Notes: generated by a model from the sequence alone, not told the origin. A DNA stretch of 63,877 nt from a virus (IMGVR_UViG_3300009027_000001:1-63877), one strand, 5' to 3'. Shown: positions 23,801 through 53,012, counted from the stretch's first letter. Made by a program: numbers and translations.

Positions 23801-26800
23801 CCAGCCCATCGGCGATACGCTGGAAGGCCCGGTCTACCGCTTCGACATGAAAACGACGAAGAAAGAACTGGAAGCACTGACCGAATCTGAACTGAACAAC
23901 GTCTTCGATGATGCGTTACGGTGGCGGCAGTCCACCAACAAACGTCTTAGCGATGGCCGCATCTCTGAAATGAAGCGAGAAATCACAACTCGCTCCGAGA
24001 GGATCAAAGAGATTATGCGGGCCGTAGTCAGTATGCGAAATAGCGCTGGCACGGAAGCACGGGCTAAAGGCGCATACATCGTCACCAACGTCACTAACAA
24101 GAAGGGTGGCGGCATCCGGCGTACGACTGTACGCAGTGGCCCGTTGACCTCCTCGTCAGAGAAGTACGAAGAAGGTGCTGACAAGCTGAAGGCTCGGGCT
24201 GAGAAAGCCAAAAAGATATACACCGATCTGTCGGACAACCTGAAGGGTGCCTTGAAACGTCTGAAGGCTGTGGCACCTGAGACTGATGAGTACGGCAACC
24301 TGACGGAACTCGGGCAGGATGAGGTCATGGGTATCTGGTGGGCTGAGTCGCTGGCTGAACTAGGGCAGGCTGTAGTTGAGAGCCGTAGGACAGACGACCC
24401 TGCTATGGAGCTGGCTAGTAAAATATCTACTGGCCTAAAACGTGTTGCCGGTAAGACCTCTGACCGTCTGTTTGGAACTGTCTTCGCCGACGCTGCTCGT
24501 CAGACCCTCATCATCAATGCGAAGGATATGGGCAAGGACCTCGCTACGATTGCAAAGCAGGTCAACAACTTCAATGACAAACTCGAGGCTGCTAACCGGC
24601 TGCACGAGGCCAAGAAAAAGTGGGTCAAAGACAGCGACTACAAGCAGTTCATTAAGCCGATCATCCGTAAGTTCCACGAGTCGTACTGGAACAACAAGGG
24701 TACGTACTACCCGACGCTGGCTGAAGCGGCAAACCTCAAGTGGGTACTAGACAACTACCGAGCGCAGGGCAAGAAAGATGACTTCTACCTGCCGCTGCGA
24801 CGGGTGCTGGAAGATTTCGGCTTCAAGTTCAAAAACAATACGCTAATCGTCAATGAGGTTGACGGCGAGTTCGACTTCACCCCGAAAGACGCTCACCTGA
24901 TGAACCGTTTTCGCCGTAGCGACCCGATCATTATGGACAGGACAGTCGTACGCCGTGAGACGGATAAACCTTACGAACCTGTCACCCTTACATACAGGCG
25001 TCCTGAAGGGGAGCTGGACAAGCGCATCGCTGAGCGTGAGAAGCGTACGGAGAAAGATCAGTTCATCGCTAAAGAGGAGCTGGACTCGATCAAGCATGTC
25101 CGTGCATCAGCCATCTTTGCACGGTTCCGTAAGATCGTGGACAACCCGAAGACCACGAGAGATAAGCTGGTTGATGCCGAGCTAAAGCTGCTTGAAGACC
25201 TAAAGAAAGAGGGTTTCCTGACCAACGTCGGCGCACAGATGGTGACTATTAAAGTACCTGACCGTCCGACGATTAGCCTCCGTCGTTCTGCACGAGCGCT
25301 GGACGACGGTATACTGACTAAGAGGGAAGCCCGCAGTCGCATGGCCTCCATCCGCAAGTCATACACCAAACCCCTATACAGGCACGAAAGTAAGGTCGGG
25401 CGCTACGCTGGTAGCGTTGCCGGTACAGCTATTGCTGATACCGAATCTGAGTGGGTATACAAAAAGCTACCGGGCTTTTTGCTTAAAAACATTAAGCCTA
25501 AACGGGTATACACTACAGCAGCTAACAAACTGCATGAGAAAATCAAGTATTCAAACTCAAGAATCTCGCTTAACGAGGCACTCGACATAATCATCGAGAC
25601 TCTACCTTCGTCTGACCCCTTGGGTAAGGTCGCTAGACAATTACGCAGCGTAGATGTCACCCGTGGTATCGGCCTCGGATATGCGTGGGGGATGAAGTAC
25701 GCGGTCGGTGGTTACTGGAATGAGTCAGGGCGAGTAGACATTGACTTTGAGTATTTCTACGGAGAAGAAGCGCTAAGCAAAACGAATAAAGATTTGGTTG
25801 ACGCCCAGTTTCTACAGGTAGTACTCCATGAAATTGCCCATGCAGCAACAGTAGAATCTATAGATCGCAGTCAAACGGCTGAGGCTATCATAGATGAACT
25901 AATACAGCAGGGGCAGCAAGCGTGGGGAAGACAACATACCGGAAAAATTCTGGAACGCATTCTTATTAACGATAAGTTCTTTAAGCAAAGGAAGTTTAGT
26001 GACGTAGCATCAAAGCAAGAACTCGCTGAAATTTTTACAGCTGAAATAAGTTTACAAGAGCCGAATAAAATTGCTTACATCAACAAGGTCGGTGACGACT
26101 TTGAAGTAATAGTTAAAGCCGCAAAAGACAAGCCCTACGGTTTTACCAATCCACATGAGTTTGTTGCTGAAGCATTTTCAAATCCTGAATTTCAAGATTT
26201 CTTAAAGGCTACCAAGTTCAACAAGAAGAACTGGCTGTGGGATGAATTCAAGAAAGCTGTGTTTAAGATTCTCGGTATTAAGACTGACGAAAACCTTGAC
26301 ACCATTTGGGATGTTGTACTAGCAGCAACGCCAGCGTTGACCAGATACGCAAACAGTTATGACCCGAGTAAATACCATTGGGAACCGGGTGGTAAAAAAG
26401 ATATGCGACCGTACGGAGAATACGTACAAGAGGCTCGTAAAGATATAAACAGCCATCGTCAAGCATACGACGATGCAGGTAATCAGCTTGGCGACTTGCT
26501 GAATGATCGCTACCGTTTGCGCGGGGCCAATACTGTACTTCAGTCACTCATCAGCTCACTGCCTGAACGCAGCGCACTAGGGATTACTGCTCGCAAACTG
26601 GCTGAGCTGGACCTAAGCGATGTTACGGTTCGCTGGGATTGGACTAATCTCATCAAGAACCCCGACACTAATGGTGTTTACCGTGGCAAACATCGCCGTG
26701 TAATCCTTGCACGTAAGGATGGAATGTCTGGACACAAGCTGGCTCGTGTCACGTTACACGAGCTGATGCACGCTGCTACGCAGGAAAGCCTGCAACGCAA

Positions 26801-40724: not shown

Positions 40725-42577
40725 CACTTGGCATCCCCGTAGGTCGGGCCGTGACCGGCCTCTGCGTCAATAGGTAAATTACGCGACCACTTAGGTTGCG
40801 TCTTCATAATGTCAAGCAAGCCCTGCTCCAACTGAGGAAGCATGGCCGTAGGGACAACATACACCAGTTCGTCGTGCGCCTGCAATGCGGGCCGGAGTCC
40901 GAACTGCTCGTAGGCTTGACGCATGTGTCCCGTAATGATGATTCGGGCGAGGGCTTGGATCAGGTTCTCTACGAACTTGCCGCCCCACATGGTACGGCCC
41001 TGTCCAGCGAAGTTGTACGTCCAGCCTTGGTACTTGGCGTCCTCAACCCACCTGAGATTCGGGTAGTCGAGTGACATGCCATTGGGGAGAATGATCTGAT
41101 TGCCCTTCACTGTGGCCGGGCCGATCTGTCGTGAGCCGCCGTTCACCATCATTCCGACAGTCTCATCACACAGCTTCCAGAGTGCCGGGATTTCGGGGTA
41201 CGACATTCTATACACATCTACGTAACGCCTGACTTGCTCGTCGGTTTCTTTGACGCCCTGAGCGCGGAGGGTTGCCTTCAGCTTCTTCCAGCCCATGCCG
41301 TAGCCGAGGCCGAGGATGCAGGTCTTGCCGATGAACCGCTCGTGCTGGTCGGCCTTGGTAATGACTCTGCCCCAGACCTTCGACGCAAACGCACAGTATG
41401 GATCACCACCTGTACGGAACACATGTAGCAAATCCTGACAGTTGGACAGCCATGCGTTCAGGCGAGCCTCGATCTGGGACAGGTCACACGCCAGAACTGT
41501 ATGACCGGGGGGAGCGCAAAGCGCGTAACGTAGGTGGTTACGGTCTGTGGCATCCTGTGGGATACGTGGGAGATTCTGGCAGTTGATCTTCTCCATGCCC
41601 CCATATCGCCCTGTGTGGGCCGCATAGTAACGTAGGGGGATTCTGAGACGCTTGTAGCGCTCTGCTATGTCAAGGAACCTCTCGGCACGTGACTCGGCAA
41701 TCGTGGATTTCACGCCTAGTCTCGCTGCCATGATAGGCGCTATGATGGGGTCGTCGCCGTAGGTGTCTTCCAGTTCCTTCCAGCCTGTGTCGTTCTTGGC
41801 GAACGCCCAAGTCGCTTTCCCGGTGGTGGGGCTGATCTTGTATGGTACTTCTACCCCTAGGCTTTCTAACAGCTGTGCGAATTGTGGGTTAGACGAAAGT
41901 TGTGACTTTTTCACATGGTCGGGAAGGGCTTCCATGAGCTTCTTTTTTCGCTCACGAGTTGAGTCTAGCACACCCTTCAGGATTTTAGCATCCAGAACGA
42001 ACTGCGGCTCGAGATACATACGCAGCGTCAGGTCGATAATGTCTAATTCATCACGAGGGAACTCAGCGAGTAAATTCTTGAACAGCCAGTAGGTACCTTC
42101 CACATCCGTCTTGCAGTACTCGCCATATTCGACCATTTCTTGAGTCGAGAGCGAGGCACGCTTCCGGCCAGCCATCAAGTGGACAGTTCCCATCTTTGCC
42201 CAAGGAGACTTTCTTACTTTGAGACAGGAAGCCAGCGATATACTCCTGTGGTACGGTTTGAGGAGGGCTTGAGCCATACCAAGTGTGTCCAGCAAGCGTG
42301 CTGGTAGCTGGGTCGGAAAATAGGTTGATAAGATCACGCCATCGAATAAGGTATTGTGACTCAACATAGCTGAGTCGCGTAGACCAAGGCGAGCGAAAAG
42401 GGCCGCATATTCGTCCATCGTGTCGTAGCTGTACCATTCGGCAGGTTCCTCATTGACTTTGATGCCGACCATGATTATCTCAAAGCGTGGGTCAGACACG
42501 TAATCCTGAGTAGACATCTTCGACAGGGAGTAGTCCTTGTCGTAGTATGTTTCCCAATCAAGGGTGATGAGGTTCAT
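40724..42577 (-). CDS. DNA polymerase family A with a 3'-5' exonuclease domain
   Basis: ExoI LDWET, HN..FD; HTGRY, NCQNLP, motif A DLSQIEAR, motif B R..GKTCILGLGYG, motif C HDELV. Confidence 0.92.
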   Translation of the reverse strand: MNLITLDWETYYDKDYSLSKMSTQDYVSDPRFEIIMVGIKVNEEPAEWYSYDTMDEYAALFARLGLRDSAMLSHNTLFDGVILSTYFPTQLPARLLDTLGMAQALLKPYHRSISLASCLKVRKSPWAKMGTVHLMAGRKRASLSTQEMVEYGEYCKTDVEGTYWLFKNLLAEFPRDELDIIDLTLRMYLEPQFVLDAKILKGVLDSTRERKKKLMEALPDHVKKSQLSSNPQFAQLLESLGVEVPYKISPTTGKATWAFAKNDTGWKELEDTYGDDPIIAPIMAARLGVKSTIAESRAERFLDIAERYKRLRIPLRYYAAHTGRYGGMEKINCQNLPRIPQDATDRNHLRYALCAPPGHTVLACDLSQIEARLNAWLSNCQDLLHVFRTGGDPYCAFASKVWGRVITKADQHERFIGKTCILGLGYGMGWKKLKATLRAQGVKETDEQVRRYVDVYRMSYPEIPALWKLCDETVGMMVNGGSRQIGPATVKGNQIILPNGMSLDYPNLRWVEDAKYQGWTYNFAGQGRTMWGGKFVENLIQALARIIITGHMRQAYEQFGLRPALQAHDELVYVVPTAMLPQLEQGLLDIMKTQPKWSRNLPIDAEAGHGPTYGDAK

Positions 42578-42639
42578 CCGAGAACTGCAATCAGCAGCAG
42601 GAAGAACATAAGCACAATTAGAGTTGTCCATCGTTTCAT
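42574..42639 (-). CDS. 21-aa hydrophobic micropeptide MKRWTTLIVLMFFLLLIAVLG
   Basis: ATGA overlaps with both the upstream gene and the polymerase start. Confidence 0.55.
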   Translation of the reverse strand: MKRWTTLIVLMFFLLLIAVLG

Positions 42640-43184
42640 TTTATGTATTTGTCTATCAGCTGTTGATACAGCGAGGGCTTCGGGGGTAGGGCGGCGCTGC
42701 CTAAAGTACTGGCTGATGATAACGCCTGCCCTGTGGACGTTCCGTTGCTGGTGATCGTGATGCTCGGAGACTGCACGTTTGCCAAGCCTGTAGCAACAGG
42801 AGGATCAATCAAATGGTGGCGTGGATAATACGCAGGGTTAGGTGCTTCTGGTCTAGGTGTTACCAAGTCGAAGTCACAGTCAGGGTTCTGACACTGAAGT
42901 GACACCCAATCGCCGGGCTTATTGTCCAGACCGTTGTCGGTTTCTTCGATCCAGAGTTGGAACACAAGCAGCAGACCTTTCTTCTCATCACGTGTGAGAC
43001 ACTGACGACAGAAGATCGTGTTGTGTTGACGTTCGTACTTCTTTAGCGAGTTCAGATCACGTGCGTGGAATGGGGTGAGATAGTGTGAACGAAACGTGTC
43101 AGGGTTGAATACCCCCGCCTGCATTTCAGGGTGAACTTTGGCAACAAGTTCGACAACTTCTTGCCGTACTTCATCTAGTTTCAC
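42636..43184 (-). CDS. Hypothetical protein with CxxC...CxxxxC
   Basis: First ORF after the promoter at 43217-43245. Confidence 0.6.
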   Translation of the reverse strand: MKLDEVRQEVVELVAKVHPEMQAGVFNPDTFRSHYLTPFHARDLNSLKKYERQHNTIFCRQCLTRDEKKGLLLVFQLWIEETDNGLDNKPGDWVSLQCQNPDCDFDLVTPRPEAPNPAYYPRHHLIDPPVATGLANVQSPSITITSNGTSTGQALSSASTLGSAALPPKPSLYQQLIDKYIK

Positions 43185-43216
43185 TTCAGTCGCCTTACTT
43201 AGTTGGTAGATGATTG

Positions 43217-43245
43217 AAGCTACCAGATGACCTTCCGCTCGTCAA
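43217..43245 (-). promoter_or_regulatory. Sigma70-type promoter for the replication genes
   Basis: TTGACG-17-TAGCTT with an extended TGn on the minus strand. Confidence 0.6.
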
Positions 43246-43248
43246 GAC

Positions 43249-43279
43249 AAAAAAAGGGGCCAGCCCGAAGGCCAGCCCC
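43249..43279 (-). terminator. Rho-independent terminator
   Basis: GGGGCTGGCC-TTCG-GGCTGGCCCC followed by T7 on the minus strand. Confidence 0.85.
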
Positions 43280-43306
43280 GAAGGATGACACACACAGTGT
43301 GTGTGG

Positions 43307-44026
43307 TTAGTGCGGATACCGTCTATCCAATTCCAAGTCGTCCTCCATGACAGCACAAGTTAGCAGCACTTGGTTAATATCGTCCATGAACGGCAAGTGG
43401 CGAAACTGCGTTAGCTGAGTCGCGCCCCAACCTTCAGGCATAGATGACTTCAACTTCTGCGCTGCCATGCGCTGCGTGTACTTCCTTTCAACGAGAGAAG
43501 CAAACTCGGGCCACGCACGATACAACTGCCCCGGCGTGTTCACCGGATTGATACTCAGGGTTTCACCATTACTCATCATAAAGTTACCCCCGCCCCAACA
43601 GATACCACGTGCATAGTTGTCGAACTTACGTTGCCAGAACGCCAACTGCTTGTGCCTAACAACCCACGCTAATACCTTGCTCCGAAGCGTGGGGTCTGTA
43701 ATGTCCGTATCCTTAATCTCTATCTCAGGATACGGCCATGCGTCATACGAATGACCAAAGGTTAAAGTGATTTCGGGTTTCTTGTTTAGGAACTCGCGCT
43801 TTTCTGCCAGCGACGGACAATGAATCGTCAGTTTGTTGCAGTACTTCAAAGCGTTCTTCTTACCAAGTAACTCCATCGCATCACGTTCATCCTGTGACCA
43901 ACCGAACCAGTAGTACTCCTCGGGGTTAAGCGTGTTCTTGTGTATCGTGTGTCGATACTTGTTGAACAACGCTGTACCCCGAGAAAGCATGAGTGACCTA
44001 CCGGATTGCGATAGTCGGCTACTCAT
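43307..44026 (-). CDS. Hypothetical protein
   Basis: Long ORF; start chosen at the ATG overlapping the end of the vWA gene. Confidence 0.6.
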   Translation of the reverse strand: MSSRLSQSGRSLMLSRGTALFNKYRHTIHKNTLNPEEYYWFGWSQDERDAMELLGKKNALKYCNKLTIHCPSLAEKREFLNKKPEITLTFGHSYDAWPYPEIEIKDTDITDPTLRSKVLAWVVRHKQLAFWQRKFDNYARGICWGGGNFMMSNGETLSINPVNTPGQLYRAWPEFASLVERKYTQRMAAQKLKSSMPEGWGATQLTQFRHLPFMDDINQVLLTCAVMEDDLELDRRYPH

Positions 44027-45206
44027 CGTCCAGTTCCACGTAGATCGTTTCACCGACAGGGGATTCCATTCCCTCGCTGGTGCTGCACCAGATCGTCGGG
44101 TAGCCCGGATCGTCTGGGAAGTCACCGTACATATCAGTGAAGTAAACTACGCAGTCAGGGCGAATACCTTGCTCCTCAATCCATACGAAGGGCGGCACAA
44201 AACTCGTCCCTCCTCCCCCACCGAGCGGTGGGATATTGTCTCGCAAAGAGTCACCCGCGTACAACTCATACACTTTGTTGATACGGGCATCGCAGCCGAT
44301 CAGCGTCACCTGTTGCGGGGTGCAGTCGAGCAGGATGTTGTCGCACTCACCCAAACCCTGTGCCATTTCCTTCTGTGACATAGAGCCTGAAGTATCGACA
44401 ACGAACACGATGTGTCCTGCCGAGAAGCCTGTGTAGCTAGGCATCACTACACCCTGTGACAGCAGTCGGCGACGATGGGGTCGCGTCCAAGTCGTAGCCT
44501 CACGGCCAGCACACTTGTTCATAGACTTACGCAACTTCTCCGTCCACTGTACTTTCGGGTCTAACACCTGTTCGACAAACCGTTGCAGGTCAGCAGGTAA
44601 CTTACCCTGCGCCTTGGCAGCGTCGGCAGCACTTGCAATCACACGTTTCATTTCTGCCTCAGTCGATTGAGCATTAGCAGGAATGTGGTGATCTAACGTA
44701 CCACCTTCGCCCGGCCCCGGCCCCTCTCCATCATTGGGGTCGTCTTTCAGCTTGCGATAGACTTCATCTGCCATATCCTGCGAAGTGAACCGGGACGGAT
44801 CATGCAGGATGTTGCTAGGCATCTTACCGATCTTGCAGTTGTACAGCATATCGTTAATGACGTAATCGCCAGCGCGATTCCATCTGCCGTGGTCAAAGGG
44901 TTCACCGTCGAAGCCCGTGTCTTGATACGCCTTGCTTCGCGCCATGTGCATCCACATTGCGTGGGCAATCTCATGGCACATAACAAAGACACGCTCAGGC
45001 AACGAACACTTGGCGAAGAAGTCCTCGTCGAACCAGATGTTCTTACCATCGGTTGCTGCCGTTTCGTTTCCCTTCATGTGCGGGGGAAACACATTGTCGA
45101 ACTTACCGACCTTGATGTTCATGTGGTCGAGCATGATCGACGCAAAGAACGGCACGTGCAACAGCATGGCAGTCTTTACTTCGGTGAGTTTGGTATTCTC
45201 ACTCAT
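44019..45206 (-). CDS. HExxH metallopeptidase-like plus vWA domain protein (DUF2201-type)
   Basis: TAATDG, HEIAH, N.A.DY.IN; MIDAS DTSGS, GGGGT.F, FTD. Confidence 0.85.
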   Translation of the reverse strand: MSENTKLTEVKTAMLLHVPFFASIMLDHMNIKVGKFDNVFPPHMKGNETAATDGKNIWFDEDFFAKCSLPERVFVMCHEIAHAMWMHMARSKAYQDTGFDGEPFDHGRWNRAGDYVINDMLYNCKIGKMPSNILHDPSRFTSQDMADEVYRKLKDDPNDGEGPGPGEGGTLDHHIPANAQSTEAEMKRVIASAADAAKAQGKLPADLQRFVEQVLDPKVQWTEKLRKSMNKCAGREATTWTRPHRRRLLSQGVVMPSYTGFSAGHIVFVVDTSGSMSQKEMAQGLGECDNILLDCTPQQVTLIGCDARINKVYELYAGDSLRDNIPPLGGGGGTSFVPPFVWIEEQGIRPDCVVYFTDMYGDFPDDPGYPTIWCSTSEGMESPVGETIYVELDDE

Positions 45207-45787
45207 GTTTTTTCTCCTCTACCTTTGTAGGTGTCGAACGGGACTCTCACTACAGCCTCGTCAGACAGCAGACGATCAGCCAACCGGATACGTTGGTCAG
45301 TCCACATATCCATGTGTTCGTCTACCACCTGTCTCAACTCAGTGAAGTGAGACTTCAGCGCCTCGTCCCATCGTGAATTGACGTTGATGATTAGCCCATG
45401 TGATCCACGTGCATACAAGTCACGAGCAGAGAACTTGTTGGTCATTACCAACTGCGCCTCCATGTGCTTGAGACAAGCGTCACGAGCCTCGCTGTCGGGG
45501 AACCACAAGCTAGCTTTGGTCTTACCCATGTAGCCGATATTCCAATCAACTGTCTTGAGTATGACTTCCAGCACCTTCTGCCACAGCGGTGAGCGTGATA
45601 ACGAATACCCACGCCGCAGAGCAGAGTCAATGGCCTTGCGTTCCTTACCGTCTAGGTCTTTCATCGTGACCTCGGAGTACCCACGTAAACGAATGGGAAT
45701 CTCATATTCACGTGGCCAACCTTTGTGACGCTTGTGAGCTGACACCCATCGGTTCCACGCAGACGTACCATTTTCAATGTCAGGCAT
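45203..45787 (-). CDS. Hypothetical protein
   Basis: GGAG RBS; overlaps both neighbours. Confidence 0.6.
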   Translation of the reverse strand: MPDIENGTSAWNRWVSAHKRHKGWPREYEIPIRLRGYSEVTMKDLDGKERKAIDSALRRGYSLSRSPLWQKVLEVILKTVDWNIGYMGKTKASLWFPDSEARDACLKHMEAQLVMTNKFSARDLYARGSHGLIINVNSRWDEALKSHFTELRQVVDEHMDMWTDQRIRLADRLLSDEAVVRVPFDTYKGRGEKT

Positions 45788-47015
45788 CGGCGTACTCCTT
45801 CATCGCTTCAACAATCTCGCCAGCATCCTTAGCCAACTGCTTACGAAGCGCGTCGTCCTTGCGAATGTCTTTCACATCGTACATGGTCAACTTCTTCTCG
45901 ACAGCCTCGCGGATTTCTTCGATCTTCGCATCGTTGGTTGCATTCAGATGTTTGAGCATCGAAGCCTGATCCTTCAGCTTGTCCACCATCGTGTAGTGGA
46001 ACAGCGCGTCGGGGTTACTCAGTCGCTCGAAGGCGTGGTTCACGGTTTCAAACAGCCGTTGCCAAGCATCCTGCATCGCGTTCTCGAGCATCGTGCGCGT
46101 CCGAGAGTTCAATGCCTCTGCCAACTTCTGTGCCTGTTGCCCTTGGATACCATCGAAGTCAGCACCCTTGGGGATAGGCTGGAAGTCGAAGTCCAGACCG
46201 AAGTGATCCCTGATACTTGCAAGGTCAGGGTAGTCATTGGCGTTATAGGCAGTACCGAGTTTCCTCTGCGCTGCCTGTAAGTCATTGGCGTACCCTTTCT
46301 CAAACTCAGTCAGGGCTGCCTCTGTCTCGGACTTGGCGTTTGCCACAGCTGCCGTGTACTCCATGAACAGGGTATTAGGAAGCAGCCGAGGCCCGGCGCG
46401 TTTCCCTGTTTCATTCACACCCACGACAGACCACGGAAGGGTCATGGCGTAGTGAGCAGTACGTGCAGCGTCGATGCACTTGTGGACTTTCTTGAGTCGT
46501 TCATCGGCACCGGCCAGCAGATACTTGTGAGTCTCAAACGCCGCAGCGTCAGCACCAGCCGCAGCCGCAGCATCCTTACTGGCTTTACGGTCCTTGATCT
46601 TACCGTGCCATCGTGCGGTGCGAAGTGTCACAAGTGTTCCAAACTGACGAATGTCGATTTGGTCGAGAATGTCCTCATCGGTGAACGTGGGGATGGGCAC
46701 ATGATCTACGCCCGTACCCTTTGCGAACACCTGATTGGAAGGGGTGTCACACACAGTGTGTGTTTCCGTAACTTCCGTAACTTCCGTAACTTCGGGTTCT
46801 GGTTCCTCCTCTTGTTCTCCCGCAGCTTGTGCGATCAACGATTCAATATCGTCAACCTCATCGTCAACTTCATCGTCAACCTCTGGCTCGTTCACCAAGT
46901 CATCGGCGGTGATAACGACTTCCTCCTCGGGTTCCGGGGTTTCAGTCACCTGTTCCGTATCGTCCGATAGCACGCTATCGAGCAAGGAACTAATATCGTC
47001 AAATGATGCACCCAT
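45780..47015 (-). CDS. Helical protein with an acidic N-terminus (DUF3150-like), associated with the AAA/vWA pair
   Basis: GGAGG RBS; TLPW...G.RLLP, Y...DYP....R..F. Confidence 0.55.
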   Translation of the reverse strand: MGASFDDISSLLDSVLSDDTEQVTETPEPEEEVVITADDLVNEPEVDDEVDDEVDDIESLIAQAAGEQEEEPEPEVTEVTEVTETHTVCDTPSNQVFAKGTGVDHVPIPTFTDEDILDQIDIRQFGTLVTLRTARWHGKIKDRKASKDAAAAAGADAAAFETHKYLLAGADERLKKVHKCIDAARTAHYAMTLPWSVVGVNETGKRAGPRLLPNTLFMEYTAAVANAKSETEAALTEFEKGYANDLQAAQRKLGTAYNANDYPDLASIRDHFGLDFDFQPIPKGADFDGIQGQQAQKLAEALNSRTRTMLENAMQDAWQRLFETVNHAFERLSNPDALFHYTMVDKLKDQASMLKHLNATNDAKIEEIREAVEKKLTMYDVKDIRKDDALRKQLAKDAGEIVEAMKEYADA

Positions 47016-47016
47016 G

Positions 47017-48102
47017 TTACATACCTCCACGTTTCGGGTCGATCAGGTTCGCTGCAACTAACAGGTCTTGATTCTGGCGCAACCAACCAGCGAACTTCTT
47101 TGATTGCACAAGTGATGGGCCGGTCTTACGCATAGCGGCCTTGATACCAGACACCTGAAACTCACGAGGCATACGCTTGAGATAATCAAACGCAGGCTCC
47201 GCAGTATCTCCGTCCACACGGTGAGCGATCATCTGCGTGGCAGCGTACTGGGCATCGGGACGCTCTTTGTCAGGCAGCTTGCACTTCATCGGATTCGCAA
47301 CGATGTCCTCAAAGTCAGGCAGTTGCTCTACCACACGCATGAATGAAACAAACTGTGCGGTAGTACCCTCGCCGATTGCACCGGAGCAGAGTTCAATGAA
47401 GTCACCTTCCGAGAAGTAATCGCCGATCAGGTGCGACACCTTGCAGAACGAGCGTGGCGTGCAGAACGGCCCCGGCTTGTCAGGTACCTTGTCCTGAAAG
47501 ATCAGTCCCGGCTGAGCCTTGGCGAAGGCAATCGCCGCCCAATGGATATTGCCCTCTTGCTCGGCCCACTCAACCCACGAGTCCAAGTGCGGCTCGACCT
47601 TCAGTTCGATACGCCTGTTCTCAATGAACGCGAGTGAACGCTGGACACCAGAGCGATCCGATTCCCTGTTGGACGCAGCTACCACCATGTACTCAATCGG
47701 CAGCTTACTGTCGCCCACCTGCCCTGCATTGAGCAGTTCGGCAGAAGGTTTCTGTACATCGTGACCAGACTGCCGGTACTCATCCAAGAAGATGAATCCC
47801 GCCGCAGCATCACCCTCCTTCGGCATCCAAGGTGCCTTAGTGAACCACATTTCACGTGCCTCAAGATCGGGGCAACCATAGCCACGAACATCGGGTGCTT
47901 CCACTGTGGACAGGAAGAACTTCTTAACGGTGAAGTCAGGCAGACTCCATTGTTTCTGTACCAGCCTACCGGCTTGCTCAACGCCCATTGACTTGCCAAG
48001 TCCGGGGCCGGATACCAACTCGACAGAGAAGCGTTCACCTGTCTCAACTTGTCGCTTCCACAACTGCGAAAGCATGGGTATTACTTGGTTCATGTATGCC
48101 AT
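47017..48102 (-). CDS. MoxR-like AAA+ ATPase
   Basis: GPGLGKS, FIFLDE, AASNR..D, NR, TPRS. Confidence 0.85.
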   Translation of the reverse strand: MAYMNQVIPMLSQLWKRQVETGERFSVELVSGPGLGKSMGVEQAGRLVQKQWSLPDFTVKKFFLSTVEAPDVRGYGCPDLEAREMWFTKAPWMPKEGDAAAGFIFLDEYRQSGHDVQKPSAELLNAGQVGDSKLPIEYMVVAASNRESDRSGVQRSLAFIENRRIELKVEPHLDSWVEWAEQEGNIHWAAIAFAKAQPGLIFQDKVPDKPGPFCTPRSFCKVSHLIGDYFSEGDFIELCSGAIGEGTTAQFVSFMRVVEQLPDFEDIVANPMKCKLPDKERPDAQYAATQMIAHRVDGDTAEPAFDYLKRMPREFQVSGIKAAMRKTGPSLVQSKKFAGWLRQNQDLLVAANLIDPKRGGM

Positions 48103-48107
48103 GAGTT

Positions 48108-48623
48108 TTATACCTCGATATGTTTTACTTGATGAAAAGGCACGCCCGAAGTACGTGCTATGATTTGTGCCATTGATTGACTCGTTAAGGCGACACTATC
48201 CTTGAACGGTAACGCGAATATATGTCCGGTGAATTCCCGCGTTAATCGAATCCACGCAGCTGTCGTGAGACAGTCGTCGTCTGTTGCTGTCGCATCACGT
48301 AAGATGATGCACACTTGCTCTCCTTCATCGCACTCTTTGTAACAGAATGGTAGATAGCCTTCGGGAGTGCTTGCCTCGGCTTTCAATCGGTTCCATTCTG
48401 GTAGGGTGCAGGGGTCAGCGAAGCAGAATTCCTGTGCCTCATGCTGCTCCCTACTCTGGTCAGGGAATAAAAGCATTTCGTTCTCCATCGCATCGACCAA
48501 TGCTTCCAGTATGTAATAGACGTTGCGACACCGTTCCATGAGAGCAACCTTGGTTAGCTGATCCCACGAACTGCCAACGGCATTGAAGGCACGCTTCGCC
48601 CGTTTCAGGTGTATTGATTTCAT
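48108..48623 (-). CDS. Hypothetical early protein
   Basis: ORF with ATGA coupling. Confidence 0.55.
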   Translation of the reverse strand: MKSIHLKRAKRAFNAVGSSWDQLTKVALMERCRNVYYILEALVDAMENEMLLFPDQSREQHEAQEFCFADPCTLPEWNRLKAEASTPEGYLPFCYKECDEGEQVCIILRDATATDDDCLTTAAWIRLTREFTGHIFALPFKDSVALTSQSMAQIIARTSGVPFHQVKHIEV

Positions 48624-48835
48624 GCCCGATGTGGTTTCCTCCCTTTGCTACTCCTGTTGGGAGCACCACGCTTCTCATACTTACGACGTCGTGGAGCTGC
48701 GAGCGCGGCTTGTGAGACAGCCATGTCACGACGTTTCATTTCACGGTTCCACGCAGCGAGCGATACGTCACGATCCCCGCCAGCGACAGATGTACCAAAG
48801 ATACGGTCAACCACCTTTTTAATTTGTTTCTTCAC
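48620..48835 (-). CDS. Basic hypothetical early protein
   Basis: GAGGAGG RBS. Confidence 0.55.
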   Translation of the reverse strand: MKKQIKKVVDRIFGTSVAGGDRDVSLAAWNREMKRRDMAVSQAALAAPRRRKYEKRGAPNRSSKGRKPHRA

Positions 48836-49064
48836 TCTCTACCTCCTCATGCCTGATACAGTCCCATAGTTCACGTGTTTCATCAGGCTTGAAACAGTGG
48901 GATATGTCGGGTCGCCAATCACAGGTTTCACACACAGTGTGTGGTTCTGCTGCCTTGGCGGACTCGAACAACAGAATGCCACCGATGATCCACGCACACA
49001 GCGCGAATACGGCGGCGATGATAACGAGTGCCAGCATGAAGTCTGGTGATGGACGATACCTCAT
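48819..49064 (-). CDS. Small membrane protein
   Basis: TM segment followed by a Cys-rich tail. Confidence 0.55.
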   Translation of the reverse strand: MRYRPSPDFMLALVIIAAVFALCAWIIGGILLFESAKAAEPHTVCETCDWRPDISHCFKPDETRELWDCIRHEEVESEETN

Positions 49065-49339
49065 GCGCCACCTGCCTTACGCGCACGCTGGACAAGTTCA
49101 TACGTGTCTGCGTCACCGATCACACAGTTCTTCACGATGTGATCCATTTCCATACGCTTACCAACGTACCTTCTATACAGCCGTTCGTAACGCTCAACCA
49201 AATCATCGTACTTGCGAAGACGCACGAACCCAAGTCGGTACAGTAACCTGTCGAGCATAGTCCCTTCGGGTTCTTCCCTACTCTTGTCTACCTTCTGCTT
49301 CAAACGCCCACGAATTTTATCTAGTTCTTTGTATTCCAC
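49061..49339 (-). CDS. Hypothetical early protein
   Basis: GAGGAG RBS before a GTG start. Confidence 0.55.
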   Translation of the reverse strand: MEYKELDKIRGRLKQKVDKSREEPEGTMLDRLLYRLGFVRLRKYDDLVERYERLYRRYVGKRMEMDHIVKNCVIGDADTYELVQRARKAGGA

Positions 49340-49832
49340 TTTCGTTCTCCTCTCCAAGCAGGATTGCTTGGCGTTGGTTAATACCCATCTTGTTTGGATA
49401 GAACCTAGCAACGAATGATGGGTAGTAGTCGTCGCTATAGTCTGTGCCGAATTCCAACACCGGCTTTGCTGTTGTAGTTGAGATCAGCTGTACTATTTCA
49501 CACCTGTCCTCACGATACCCATTGGGGTCGAAGTGATGGTCAATCAACTCCGACTGCTTTTGTGCGTGGTGTCCCATAACCTCCTCTGCCGGTTGCCACA
49601 CGTTCAACGGCATTTGATTGCAAACAATAATGTCCTCCATCATTGAACGGTAGCCATCGTTCGGGTCCTCCTGCACACGATAGATCACTCCGTCAAGCAT
49701 GAAGTACATATAGTCTACGGGCTGATCCTTCCACACCTTATCGGGTGGGTCTGCTTCCGCTTCGGTGAACCATACACCTGAAAGCAAACCCAACCGATTG
49801 TGGAAGTGTTCGAGCCTTAGTTGTCCAGCCAT
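49317..49832 (-). CDS. Hypothetical phage protein
   Basis: EDPNDGYRS and FGTDYSDDYYPSF motifs; GGAG RBS. Confidence 0.65.
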   Translation of the reverse strand: MAGQLRLEHFHNRLGLLSGVWFTEAEADPPDKVWKDQPVDYMYFMLDGVIYRVQEDPNDGYRSMMEDIIVCNQMPLNVWQPAEEVMGHHAQKQSELIDHHFDPNGYREDRCEIVQLISTTTAKPVLEFGTDYSDDYYPSFVARFYPNKMGINQRQAILLGEENESGIQRTR

Positions 49833-50158
49833 TCTATCTCTCCAACTTCCAGCCCACCTTCGCTTGATGCCTTGATGCTGAGTGATGCTTGCCTGTGTCC
49901 CATGTCGCTGTCGATCTTACTCATCAGCGCGGCCATGAATGGATCGTCAGCCATTTCATTGAGGGAGTTCACGATGTGCAGTACGTCCTGCATGAGATCG
50001 TACTGCTGTTGGGTGAGCAGGGGTTCACCGCAGTCAGGGCAGAGCGCCCCGATCCATGCTCCGTAGTCCTGCATGGCAATGTCGTCTTTGCGGTAGTCGC
50101 AGTTCTCGTTGTCGCACACGAGTCCGTTTGCTTGTACTTGGATTGGTTTCTGTTCCAT
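49817..50158 (-). CDS. Zn-ribbon hypothetical protein
   Basis: CDNENC...CPDCG; AAGGA RBS. Confidence 0.65.
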   Translation of the reverse strand: MEQKPIQVQANGLVCDNENCDYRKDDIAMQDYGAWIGALCPDCGEPLLTQQQYDLMQDVLHIVNSLNEMADDPFMAALMSKIDSDMGHRQASLSIKASSEGGLEVGEIEWLDN

Positions 50159-50192
50159 TGTAGTTCCTTAGTTGGTTTCAGTAATACTAACA

Positions 50193-50513
50193 TTAAATGT
50201 ACTGCTCGTTACACAGTTCGCAGAGTCCGTCCAGTTCTTCAAATGTCTCCTCATCTACATTCCTGTGACACTCGACGCAGAAGCACGCGGACGGTGATAA
50301 CGTGAGCGGATCGTCGTTCTGCACACGTGATGCCAATGCGAATCTGTCCCAATCAAACTTGGGGCTGTCGTTCTTGAAGTACCCCATGATCTTGTTAGTG
50401 AGGATCGTCAGGCACAACTCATGCTCACGCTCCTTCTGTACACCTGTAATGATCTTCTCATGCTCACGCCGCAGGATGCGTGCGATCGCTTCGTAGTCTT
50501 TCTTAGTTGCCAT
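50193..50513 (-). CDS. Hypothetical early protein
   Basis: AAGGAGG RBS; TKKDY..IA...F.ND.P.FD..RF pattern plus CxxC pairs. Confidence 0.65.
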   Translation of the reverse strand: MATKKDYEAIARILRREHEKIITGVQKEREHELCLTILTNKIMGYFKNDSPKFDWDRFALASRVQNDDPLTLSPSACFCVECHRNVDEETFEELDGLCELCNEQYI

Positions 50514-50769
50514 TGTGTCCTCCTTTTGACACACACTGTGTGTACCATTCTTCGTACCCGTCCAGCCAGTAAGTCAGGAAGCTGCCATGCCAAGCAATCT
50601 CGCCGAAGTACTGCTCAGTGAACTGTGCCGCCTTGTCAATGAACAGCATCCTGTCGTGCATACTTGTTAGCCTGTCGGGGTTAGAGCCACGCTGCCGGTG
50701 ATAACGAGGAGTGGGCGCACCAATCATCAGCAGCGCGGCTCTATAACTATCTTCTCGACTCTGCGCCAT
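50503..50769 (-). CDS. Hypothetical early protein
   Basis: ORF overlapping both neighbours. Confidence 0.5.
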   Translation of the reverse strand: MAQSREDSYRAALLMIGAPTPRYHRQRGSNPDRLTSMHDRMLFIDKAAQFTEQYFGEIAWHGSFLTYWLDGYEEWYTQCVSKGGHNGN

Positions 50770-51076
50770 AGCCGATGTACTTCCGCAATCTCTGGTACAT
50801 GGGTGTGATGGTGAAGCCCTCACCCCAACCACGGACAGCGCGGCTCACTGTCTCGTACTCGTCGCCGTACAGTTCAAGGTAATAGTGCTTGGGCGCAACC
50901 AGCCGAGGTTTACGCCACCTGTCTATAACCTCGTCCAGTACCCGCCGATCCTGTCGCGTCGGCGCAGTCTTACGTGCCTGTGCCAATGCCAGACACAACT
51001 CACGCTGAATCTCTGTAGTGCGCTGTGCGCCCACGTGTCCGAAATGCAGCCAGTACTTCCAGTCTCGAGATGTCAT
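50747..51076 (-). CDS. Hypothetical early protein
   Basis: AGGAGG RBS. Confidence 0.6.
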   Translation of the reverse strand: MTSRDWKYWLHFGHVGAQRTTEIQRELCLALAQARKTAPTRQDRRVLDEVIDRWRKPRLVAPKHYYLELYGDEYETVSRAVRGWGEGFTITPMYQRLRKYIGYGAESRR

Positions 51077-51084
51077 ACATCCTC

Positions 51085-51414
51085 CTATTCACAACGTATA
51101 CACGTGAATAGAACACCATCACGCTCACGTGCCGTGGGGTCGTCCCGCATATCTGGCACAGACCAGCAGTAACTCGCGGGGTTGTCGCTGCCGTCCTCGT
51201 TCCAGCAGAACTCACAGTTAGGTGTACCAACTATCAGTTCACCGAACATTTCAAGATCAGAACCGAACAGGTCAAGCACATCGCTGAACGAGTATGCAAC
51301 ACGTGTAGGTGCATCGCATATATTCTCAAGCGCGCAGCTTGCAATCGCACCATCTTCGATTACGTCCTGCTGCATTTGTTGCAGCATAATATCCATTGCC
51401 TTCATCTTACCCAT
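51085..51414 (-). CDS. Hypothetical Cys-rich early protein
   Basis: GAGGAG RBS. Confidence 0.6.
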   Translation of the reverse strand: MGKMKAMDIMLQQMQQDVIEDGAIASCALENICDAPTRVAYSFSDVLDLFGSDLEMFGELIVGTPNCEFCWNEDGSDNPASYCWSVPDMRDDPTARERDGVLFTCIRCE

Positions 51415-51432
51415 GTTACTTCTCCTCATCAT

Positions 51433-51983
51433 TGGCTTGTATCAGGTTTGACACAAGTGTTTTTGAAAACATCTGTTACACACAGTGTGTGTCCTATTAA
51501 GTGCAAAAGGTCTAAGTTCACGTGCAGTTTCGAGGGGCGAGTTTGCACTAATACTGGCCTTTGAAATCAACAGTATAACTAATACGTGAAATAAGTGCAG
51601 CGATCTGAGAGTACAGTCAGTTATAGATGCAGGGGTGAGGGGGTTGTCGCGCCCGCTTCCCCGAACCCCGAGTCTCTCTCGCTATGGGGGGTTCTTCTCT
51701 GAAATTGATTAACTTATTTAACCTATTAGATAAGTATATGTATTGTAAGGGCGCAATACGTTAAGGGTCACGTTAAATACGTTAATCACGTTCATTTCGC
51801 TGCCAAAAGTACGGCGCTGATGATAACGCCTCGCCCCTGCCACATGAAGGTTTGAAAACATCTGAAGCTGCACCGTTTACACACAGGTGTGTGTGATCCC
51901 CGGATTCCCTACACGGTGGTGATCCCGAATTTCCGCTCGTAGGGGCGAAAGAAAAGGGGCGCAAGGCCCCTTTCCAACACCGA
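51433..51983. other. Largest non-coding region; candidate origin or control region
   Basis: AT-rich core, ACGTT(A/C)A x4, TTTGAAAACATCTG x2, two palindrome copies. Confidence 0.45.
51948..51973 (-). terminator. Rho-independent terminator, possibly bidirectional
   Basis: AAAGGGGC...GCCCCTTT hairpin flanked by A/T runs, just after the stop of 51984..52550. Confidence 0.7.
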
Positions 51984-52550
51984 TCACTCGATGCAGTACT
52001 CGTACTTCTCAAACACCTGTACCAGTTCTTTGTACAGGTTGCTGCGAGGATCGAGATTCTTGATGACGCTGTTCAGCACCGTCAACCCCGGATCGCTTGC
52101 GGCTTGTTCGGTTGATTTGTAATAGGCGTTGCAAACCGCTTTCAGCGTCGGCAGCTTAACGCCACCGTTTTTCAGCTTAGTTGAAAGGTTCCGAATTTTC
52201 CGCGCTACCTTCACCCCATTGTGCCATGTGAATGAAGTCCCGTGTCGCTTGTCCGCCTTAACCGCGTTGCAATAGCTTTCCAACACGTAGTGCGTATCCA
52301 TGATCGCACGCGCCTCGCGGCCACGTTCTTGTCCGGTACGCTCCGCCCAATGCGAGTTAGTCTCGATCAGCGCTTCAACCAATTCGCGCTGCGCGTTTCC
52401 GGGGACTGCCGCGTCGGGATAATCTTCGCCGACTGCCACACACACTGTGTGTATGAACGACGTGTGATCCAATGCGCCTCGCATGGATTCCGAGAATGCG
52501 CCGACGATCTTTTTCTTAACCGTTGCGGGAACTACTGATTTATTAGCCAT
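51984..52550 (-). CDS. First leftward early gene, hypothetical
   Basis: GAGG RBS; 188 aa; followed by its own terminator. Confidence 0.7.
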   Translation of the reverse strand: MANKSVVPATVKKKIVGAFSESMRGALDHTSFIHTVCVAVGEDYPDAAVPGNAQRELVEALIETNSHWAERTGQERGREARAIMDTHYVLESYCNAVKADKRHGTSFTWHNGVKVARKIRNLSTKLKNGGVKLPTLKAVCNAYYKSTEQAASDPGLTVLNSVIKNLDPRSNLYKELVQVFEKYEYCIE

Positions 52551-52735
52551 GATATATACCTCTGTTCAGGGTGCGCCCTTCGCGCCCGTACACTAAACAA
52601 GTGAATGGAAAGAAATACACACACTGTGTGTGCTATTGTCGGGTACGGGGGTATCGGGCCAAGGGGGGCCGCCGGTGCGTACGTCGCTTACCTCCCTCAC
52701 ACATGTAACCCCTAAAAAATGAAAAGCACACATAT

Positions 52736-52763
52736 TTGACACACGGAACATTTGTGCTACTAT
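52736..52763 (+). promoter_or_regulatory. Sigma70-type rightward promoter, probably giving a leaderless transcript starting at ATG 52770
   Basis: TTGACA-16-TACTAT with extended TGn; ATG 7 nt downstream and no RBS. Confidence 0.55.
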
Positions 52764-52769
52764 CCACCC

Positions 52770-53012
52770 ATGAATGCTCTCCCCGAAAACCTGTCACCTT
52801 GGAGCTGGTCTGATCCTGAAAAGATGCTGCGCCCGGTGGGTGATTTCTCGAGCATCTGGTCGTCGGAGGTACTTCGCGCATACCGCGATGAACTCGTCGC
52901 TAACGCCGCAGCGAGCATGGCTGCCGCAATGGACAAATCAATTTTGGAGGCTGCTGAAAATGGAAAAAATCTGGATCGTAGCGTGGGTGTTAATGACACC
53001 TTCTCAGGGTGA
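52770..53012 (+). CDS. Hypothetical protein
   Basis: ORF directly after the promoter. Confidence 0.5.
   Translation: MNALPENLSPWSWSDPEKMLRPVGDFSSIWSSEVLRAYRDELVANAAASMAAAMDKSILEAAENGKNLDRSVGVNDTFSG

Follow-up and report, generated by a model that had tools for sequence, protein, structure and literature searches.

A lineage-specific array of short palindromes along the putative early operon of an uncultured phage and its relatives

The window analysed here is the whole of a viral record of 63,877 bp (IMGVR_UViG_3300009027_000001:1-63877), in which a short palindrome recurs eight times along a single putative operon. The record is complete, with a terminal overlap of 123 bp. Its plus strand encodes a terminase, a portal-like protein, an internal virion protein, and a DNA transfer protein. 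On the minus strand, an operon of ORFans and an ATPase (43307-52550) is followed by a strong terminator (43279-43256) and then by a replication module comprising PolA, SNF2, an exonuclease, and a DUF927 primase. The operon opens with g1 (51984-52550; 188 amino acids, aa), which is separated by a non-coding gap of 550 nt from the small ORFans g2-g11, and continues with g12, a MoxR-like ATPase, g13, g14, g15, a DUF2201 metallopeptidase/VWA protein, and g16. From the position, order, and content of these genes, we infer that the operon is an early one. The intrinsic terminator that closes it (43256-43279, minus strand) has a 10-bp stem with eight G-C pairs and a T7 tail, and relatives have preserved it along with the tail TTTTTTGTCT.

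Four Rhizobium RHph phages (PolA 37%, ATPase 33%) and Pseudomonas phage KPP25 are the closest relatives in culture; when the region was searched by megablast against cultured phages, nothing matched. No integrase, repressor, helix-turn-helix family, or ParB was found among the open reading frames (ORFs) scanned with Pfam and PHROGs, which are a subset of all ORFs; the phage is thus probably lytic, as judged from its gene content. A tRNA scan returned 0 genes, and Rfam returned 0 matches at the gathering score on the whole window.

An earlier note on this DNA had described eight palindromes between 43289 and 52631, and exact and degenerate scans against shuffled sequences confirmed them. The eight copies share the form (CA)3-N1-2-(TG)3, the window-type site being ACACACAGTGTGTGT. 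Six of them match ACACACA[G/C]TGTGTGT exactly (43290, 46749, 50529, 51478, 52438, and 52617), a motif that occurred 0 times in 100 dinucleotide shuffles, and the pattern ACACAC-N0-3-GTGTGT added those at 48930 and 51879 (shuffle mean 0.06, maximum 1). The claim that the other ~54 kb are free of copies also held: when up to three mismatches were allowed, just two matches, both with three mismatches (17649 and 63253), fell outside 43288-52633, with 3.8 expected by chance. Because the record is complete, this is a statement on the whole genome, and an even spread of copies across it was not seen; under a uniform spread, all eight would fall within one 9.3-kb span with a probability of ~1e-5. The array extends from the divergent intergenic region to the operon terminator, or from 66 nt upstream of the g1 ATG to 9 nt before the terminator. 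On the plus strand, the centres of the copies read G, G, G, C, G, GG, C, and C. The centre base occurs in both orientations (3 G to 4 C).

Following the direction of the operon, copy 1 (52617-52631; ACACACACTGTGTGT) lies in the divergent intergenic region of 223 bp, upstream of g1. A weak sigma70-like sequence, TTGGCC-N16-GACAAT, recognized by eye, ends 3 nt before it. Copy 2 (52438-52452) is located within g1, where it covers codons 33-38 in the peptide FIHTVCV. Copy 3 (51879-51892) is a 14-bp form with a 2-nt centre (ACACACAGGTGTGT) in the intergenic region downstream of a terminator-like hairpin of g1, and copy 4 (51478-51492) is intergenic, upstream of g2. Copy 5 (50529-50543), at the g4/g5 junction, ends 3 nt before the ribosome-binding site (RBS) of g5, AAGGAGG, and 15 nt from its ATG at 50513; it also encodes TQCV, the last codons of the putative g4. 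Copy 6 (48929-48943), given as 13 bp at 48931 in the earlier note, is in fact a 15-bp palindrome in a shifted register, CACACAC-A-GTGTGTG, and lies within g9 (PHTVCE). Copy 7 (46749-46763) falls in the acidic linker of g13 (EVTEVTEVTE-THTVC). Copy 8 (43289-43305), a palindrome of 17 bp, sits between the g16 stop codon (43307-43309), from which it is separated by 1 nt, and the terminator stem, which begins 9 nt further on at 43279 and extends to 43256. Four copies are therefore inside ORFs, as had been proposed, and three unrelated proteins carry the peptide HTVC as a result (g1 aa 34-37, g9 aa 42-45, and g13 aa 91-94). The proposed location of others at control points was likewise recovered, namely upstream of g1, beside the AAGGAGG of g5, and just before the terminator. 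Two simple structural roles were considered and rejected. As intrinsic terminators, only the copy at 52617 is weakly terminator-like (seven pairs, three of them G-C), and the others lack a T-run. Z-DNA is disfavoured by the purine-pyrimidine alternation, which is interrupted at both the 1-nt and the 2-nt centres.

The closest relatives allowed us to compare the palindromes with their surroundings. A collinear genome of 62.7 kb, G001, with 66-86% nucleotide identity to the window, has ten copies of TCACACA-N0-2-TGTGTGA. Both CACAC/GTGTG arms were intact at 7/7 positional homologues, whereas the 60-nt flanks were identical at only 559 of 914 positions (61%). The centres between these arms had flipped from G to C, changed from GG to CC, or been lost. 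Copy 1 is retained in G001 as TCACACATGTGTGA within a conserved block, although the sigma70-like sequence next to it is not conserved there. Copy 2 persists as a 14-bp form even though the g1 proteins are only 34% identical, the homologue of copy 3 carries CC for GG, and that of copy 6 reads TCACACTTGTGTGA. The counterpart of copy 4 is found on the opposite side of a conserved CAGATGTTTTCAAA block, directly before an RBS. In G003, a fragment of 6.2 kb, three copies are kept exact, among them copies 1 and 2. A scan of IMG/VR with the exact motif returned 31 stretches, all with single copies except one 6.2-kb relative fragment. Since the arms were kept at 7/7 sites against 61% identity in the flanks, the alignment demonstrates that they are under selection as DNA sequence, also inside g1.

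The CAGATGTTTTCAAA block occurs twice in the window, at 51851-51864 and 51462-51475, each time beside a palindrome copy; it is conserved in G001 and G003 and may be a promoter or operator element.

To follow the array beyond close relatives, we surveyed the clade by scanning with an ATPase alignment, which yielded 64 viral loci, and tallied the 60 loci of at least 9 kb, some of which are near-duplicates. A palindrome family, defined by 6-nt arms and at least five copies, was present in 33 of the 60, as against 1-3 in shuffled sequences, and its commonest length was again 15 bp in a 7-1-7 arrangement. In other lineages, the homologous operon carried a different palindrome in the same places: TTACTCA-S-TGAGTAA in G002, TTACAAC-S-GTTGTAA in G006, cTTACACAG-S-CTGTGTAAg in G005, TTA[A/G]CAG-S-CTG[T/C]TAA in L055, and T[A/T]AACAG-S-CTGTT[A/T]A in L057. 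The confinement to one region recurred as well, as 8/8 copies of G005 fell within 12.4 kb of a 46.7-kb contig and 6/6 copies of G006 within 8.8 kb of 49.5 kb. Lineages widely share the outer TTAC...GTAA, and the inner arm bases vary by lineage while being uniform within a genome. In the cultured Rhizobium phage RHph_TM3_14A, both arms bear TTACCT-N3-4-AGGTAA, with at least 18 copies in all; no palindrome family was found in KPP25 or in the distant locus L059. These genome comparisons establish the array as a clade-wide feature with a lineage-specific sequence. The concerted change of the sites at orthologous positions points, therefore, to a trans-acting reader that would drift along with them.

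The palindromes are also placed non-randomly with respect to genes. Among 273 sites from 33 loci, 34% were followed within ~30 nt by an RBS and a start codon (of an ORF of at least 40 codons) compared with 7.8% of random positions, and 7% were followed by a terminator-like site compared with 0.5%. In the loci that we called group A, an RBS begins 1-5 nt downstream of the site; group B sites use their right arm, AGGTAA, as the RBS in 27 of 52 start-linked cases; and in L111 the palindrome is centred on the start codon. Several positions recur across the 18 group A loci. A site precedes the ATPase start by 33-58 nt in eight of them, the lineage's own palindrome appears 1.1-1.9 kb after that start, at the position of the acidic g13 linker, in 16, and the last or next-to-last site is followed by the operon terminator in 11 according to a crude detector, and in more by eye. 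The order of stop codon, palindrome, and terminator is preserved, with different palindromes, in G001, G002, L049, L055, and L057. Long ORFs read through 21 of the 143 group A sites, and 41 of the 143 end an upstream ORF, 23 of these at the TAA of the right arm. Because the register to the RBS is variable, the distribution suggests that a site needs only a position at a junction. A translational role for the sites is possible.

In our view, a dimeric DNA-binding protein encoded by the phage most likely uses the palindromes as operators or roadblocks and co-evolves with them, and we give this reading of the sequence comparisons a probability of about one half. A protein reader on duplex DNA, its origin in the phage, and its repressive effect are what we infer from the pattern. 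In such a scheme, a symmetric and probably dimeric protein would bind the double-stranded palindromes sequence-specifically; it would probably be encoded by the phage, its specificity drifting along with the sites. The sites would be accommodated wherever the packed first operon can take 15 bp, namely in the promoter region, in gaps between a stop codon and an RBS, in a low-complexity linker of a long gene, and between the last gene and the terminator. Once bound, the protein would regulate the transcription unit as a whole, for instance by autoregulation at the g1 end and by shut-off or roadblock further down. The earlier note had already proposed selection on the DNA and an array of binding sites coating the early region. 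That proposal is supported in part. It agrees well with the arms conserved at 7/7 positions, with lineage-specific palindromes at the same positions, with centres in both orientations, and with the RNA-level observations given below, and the binder itself remains putative. Of the three mechanisms offered there, silencing by roadblock or looping, a handle during DNA entry, and titration of a host nucleoid protein, silencing at operators or roadblocks has a precedent in the stoperators discussed below, whereas titration of a conserved host protein is disfavoured.

As for the identity of the reader, g1 may be a speculative candidate. In the window, in G001, and in 13 group A loci, g1 is the gene that follows the first palindrome, and it is the most diverged of the shared early proteins between the window and G001 (34% identity, as opposed to 47-95% for the others). 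In the lineage of the window, it holds a copy of the palindrome inside its own gene. The g1 family comprises 135 cluster representatives of ~185 aa. We found no Pfam or PDB match for g1, and searches of PDB profiles and the ESM Atlas gave nothing above chance; likewise, neither g16 nor g13 matched the PDB, and g16 had no match in the ESM Atlas. As the code differs even between close relatives, a further possibility would be an immunity-like specificity between co-infecting phages. In that doubtful scenario, a clade of apparently lytic, uncultured podoviruses with genomes of 60 kb, distantly related to RHph_TM3_14A, would use a dimeric and fast-evolving g1 to read a lineage-specific 7-1-7 palindrome at almost every gene junction and to roadblock the operon.

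Several observations speak against a dimeric DNA-binding protein. No DNA-binding domain was recognized in the ORFs scanned with Pfam and PHROGs, and g1 has no recognizable fold. The correlation of motif distance with g1 identity was too weak to be of use (Spearman -0.20, p 0.045, from pairs that are not independent); with ATPase identity, the coefficient was -0.03. Spacings of 14, 15, and 16 bp coexist within G001, which many rigid dimers would not tolerate. A strict sigma70 scan beside the sites of seven genomes found one promoter overlap. Moreover, the tight association of the sites with translation starts in group A, group B, and L111, and the confinement of every copy to one transcription unit, one of them just before the terminator, would suit an RNA element at least equally well. 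The centre of the sense strand in group A shows a modest excess of C (67 C to 43 G, at sites that are not independent).

The strongest competitor, although we hold it to be clearly the less probable, is an element acting in the early polycistronic mRNA, where it would form a hairpin or bind a protein at the borders between cistrons. It could be an operator at which a phage RNA-binding repressor controls translation, T4 RegA and MS2 coat protein being familiar examples of such repressors, or a processing or stability signal. The frequent RBS and start codon (34% against 7.8%) and terminator-like sequence (7% against 0.5%) after the 273 sites fit this idea, as do the RBS 1-5 nt after group A sites, its identity with the right arm in 27/52 cases in group B, the central start codon of L111, and the confinement of all window copies to one transcription unit with the last before its terminator. 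However, the link to gene starts may simply arise because free space exists only between genes, and 21/143 group A sites lie inside long ORFs, far from any start. One metatranscriptome contig stops at 50530, at the edge of copy 5, which is a single case and a weak hint; these RNA-run data consist of contigs only, so that they carry no transcript ends, their depth cannot rank genes, and uncovered parts are not evidence. Hairpins predicted for the RNA are barely stable or do not form in several lineages (-1.1 kcal/mol in G006 and L055 and 0.0 in L057, compared with -4.9 in the window). Of 111 group A sites whose centre spans 3 nt, 96 have complementary bases on either side of the middle position, and 110 have G or C at that position. 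This symmetry at the centre fits a dimer on duplex DNA because a hairpin cannot pair the bases beside a single central base. Among 55 sites with one mismatch, 11 were compatible with G.U pairing, 16 were A.C, and 28 other, and the lack of a G.U excess over A.C gives no sign of selection for RNA pairing. The centres occur in both orientations, and the partly asymmetric site of L057 does so too, with four forward and two reverse copies besides one symmetric and one variant copy. In L038, a 9/12 sigma70-like promoter, with homologous sequences in L055 and L057, ends 3 nt before the palindrome, which would therefore cover the transcription start, and the transcript would begin inside it. Weighing these points, we give sites that act as duplex DNA an even chance or slightly better, and sites that act as RNA a clearly lower one.

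If DNA is the target, the reader could still belong to the host, for instance a nucleoid-associated protein or global regulator that is recruited or titrated in the manner of matS or SlmA sites. The outer TTAC...GTAA shared by very distant lineages (ATPase 25-60% identical) and the lack of a phage-encoded DNA-binding domain among the scanned ORFs would agree with a host protein, but near relatives with 95% identical ATPases already differ in flank and spacing, which makes a phage-encoded reader likelier. The inner arm bases differ between many lineages while being uniform within each genome. Titration of a conserved nucleoid protein is disfavoured both by the difference between near relatives and by the many arms in use among the 33 loci. 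A scan of the genomes of 185,579 species returned at least 120 stretches with scattered, chance-type single matches and no host regulon among the matches listed. We regard a host reader as unlikely. About as unlikely is a role as recombination linkers, or as a small mobile palindromic element marking cassette boundaries, with copies spread or homogenized by recombination and no dedicated regulator, for which repetitive extragenic palindromic (REP) elements and the PeSL cassettes of T4 are analogues. In a strain variant with 95-99% identity (runs X17 and X18), 726 nt are inserted at 50516-50525, beside copy 5, and an additional ORF of G001 is preceded by its own copy at 26626; for Cluster O mycobacteriophages, recombination between dyad repeats explains some indels (PMC4351075). 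Yet only one of five listed indels abuts a copy, 15 bp is short for homologous recombination, and no HUH or transposase-like gene was found among the ORFs scanned. Transposition is further argued against because the sites keep orthologous positions while their sequence changes. The insertions of the strain variant, whose X17/X18 contigs look like DNA, fall at gene junctions and include, besides that of 726 nt, those of 259 nt (48623-48636) and 242 nt (52764-52793). Finally, N4 early promoters are single-stranded hairpins with a 6-bp stem and a 3-nt loop that are read by a giant virion RNA polymerase, have a fixed orientation, and carry a purine at the loop centre on the template strand. The 6-bp stem and 3-nt loop seen here match that geometry, and the convergent arms and a 3126-aa ORF in the virion arm recall N4. 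The giant ORF, however, is a DarB-like protein of the antirestriction type (LPD39 in Pfam, 4.3e-09; DarB-like phrog_10089, 3.2e-54) with no match to an RNA polymerase family, the centre is G or C on either strand without a fixed orientation, and copies also occur inside genes and before the terminator. N4-like promoters were rejected as highly improbable on the identity of this ORF and the orientation-free centres, and the phage itself is not of the N4 type.

Separately, the exact window motif was noticed on four contigs of a Eubacteriales metagenome-assembled genome (L157, L163, L174, and L177), with five copies among the matches listed; this is above chance for one genome, which may have a repeat family of its own.

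Among known systems, the operator reading has its closest parallel in the stoperators of Cluster A mycobacteriophages (L5 gp71 type). Stoperators are reported by Brown et al. in 1997 to prefer short intergenic gaps. They share with the present array the many copies of a short site along transcription units and the genome-specific variants. In these phages, repressor sites are numerous across the genome; their motifs are specific to each genome and follow both relatedness and the repressor, one site lies upstream of the gene for the repressor, and the bound repressor blocks elongation (PMC9283540; PMC6550527). However, a stoperator is a 13-bp site without symmetry and usually in one orientation, whereas the sites here are 7-1-7 palindromes with the centre in both orientations. 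The former serve a monomeric immunity repressor genome-wide in temperate phages, whereas the latter are confined in group A to one operon, with no integrase or repressor among the scanned ORFs; the phage groups and their hosts are unrelated.

A second parallel is the 17-bp dyad TGTTCGG-N3-CCGAACA of Cluster O, which has invariant 7-bp arms and no known function, a dimeric protein being suspected by the authors who described it. The same source places it in short intergenic gaps, near the 5' ends of genes, and inside genes, and reports it absent from the host genome (PMC4351075). The two arrays resemble each other in 7-bp inverted arms, an orientation-free centre, and many copies in intergenic and genic positions. 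They differ in that Cluster O, whose siphoviruses are unrelated to the present phage, has an A/T-rich spacer of 3 nt and more than 30 copies genome-wide, compared with a 1-nt G/C centre and one operon here; PMC4351075 describes no arm variation across a wider clade.

The OB operators of KorB in RK2 are odd-length palindromes that are dispersed, some far from promoters, and support long-range silencing; an OB oligonucleotide with a G/C centre reads TTTAGCGGCTAAA (PMC11790492). Like these and the parS arrays of ParB, the present sites are dispersed odd-length palindromes with a G/C centre, but KorB and ParB are ParB-family CTPase clamps, in the former case of a plasmid, whereas Pfam found no ParBc in 24 ORFs of the window, which belongs to a lytic-type phage. 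RK2 has 12 OB sites. In PhiC31, copies of a 17-bp palindrome, the CIRs (conserved inverted repeats), are spread over the early region and bound by the c repressor; the likeness lies in a multi-copy palindrome over an early region, and the difference in a temperate Streptomyces phage with a known repressor. REP elements are imperfect palindromes of 20-40 nt with a GTAG/CGTC head and are served by RAYT, an HUH Y1 transposase (described in part in PMC3733652). They do not match the perfect 15-bp sites of the window, which have no such head and no accompanying transposase family among the scanned ORFs. We found no account of the present palindromes in the literature and no papers under the name 'RHph_TM3_14A', and the paper on Agrobacterium phage Miki mentions no palindromes, inverted repeats, or promoters.

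What sets the array apart is thus its symmetry, its restriction to one operon, its occurrence in an apparently lytic uncultured clade, and its natural series of specificities. If the palindromes are operators, they would represent a stoperator-like array in an apparently lytic phage of a Gram-negative-type clade. More than 30 natural specificity variants on one architecture would then offer a ready series of orthogonal operator/regulator pairs, and the sites would provide a handle on the timing of early genes, nearly all of them ORFans here, in a large uncultured clade. If the RNA alternative were true, they would constitute a translational operator spanning several genes, which would be new. 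In both cases, the motif offers a simple means of locating the early operon of these genomes computationally.

Other elements were noted in and around the same region. A polar motif, CGTTATCA[C/T]C, occurs between 42715 and 51828 on the minus strand in six exact copies, all on the early-sense strand, with 0.25 expected. No 8-mer is more common in the early arm than its core CGTTATCA, which has seven copies against 0 on the other strand, most of them in ORFs. The polarity of GTTATCA[C/T] is repeated in relatives, with 13:0 in L049, 12:1 in L061, 9:2 in L048, 9:0 in L068, and 77:12 overall. A repeat of ~33 nt, GGCGTTATCATCAGC..GTACTTT.GGCAGCG, lies on the minus strand at 51813-51845, after the g1 terminator, and at 42705-42737, after the operon terminator and upstream of PolA, and G001 has retained the two copies. 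The best-matching sigma70-like promoter here (52736-52763, plus strand; TTGACA-16-TACTAT with TG, 10/12) faces the plus-strand arm and is not conserved in G001 or G003. In RHph_TM3_14A (MN988472.1), a gene of 1027 aa at 42239-45322 is annotated as a 'putative integrase' and an 'attL' at 26780-26793 is placed inside the ATPase gene. The integrase label looks doubtful because the large gene matches the DUF927 primase-helicase of the window by position. Finally, the 550-nt gap between g1 and g2 contains a conserved, structured non-coding element (~51595-51725, minus strand) with 46 predicted pairs, eight of which show compensatory double changes among three sequences, and an invariant ACCCCCCATAGCGAGAG. 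It has no Rfam match and is preceded by a TACAAT -10-like box, and it may be a small RNA of the phage or a leader.

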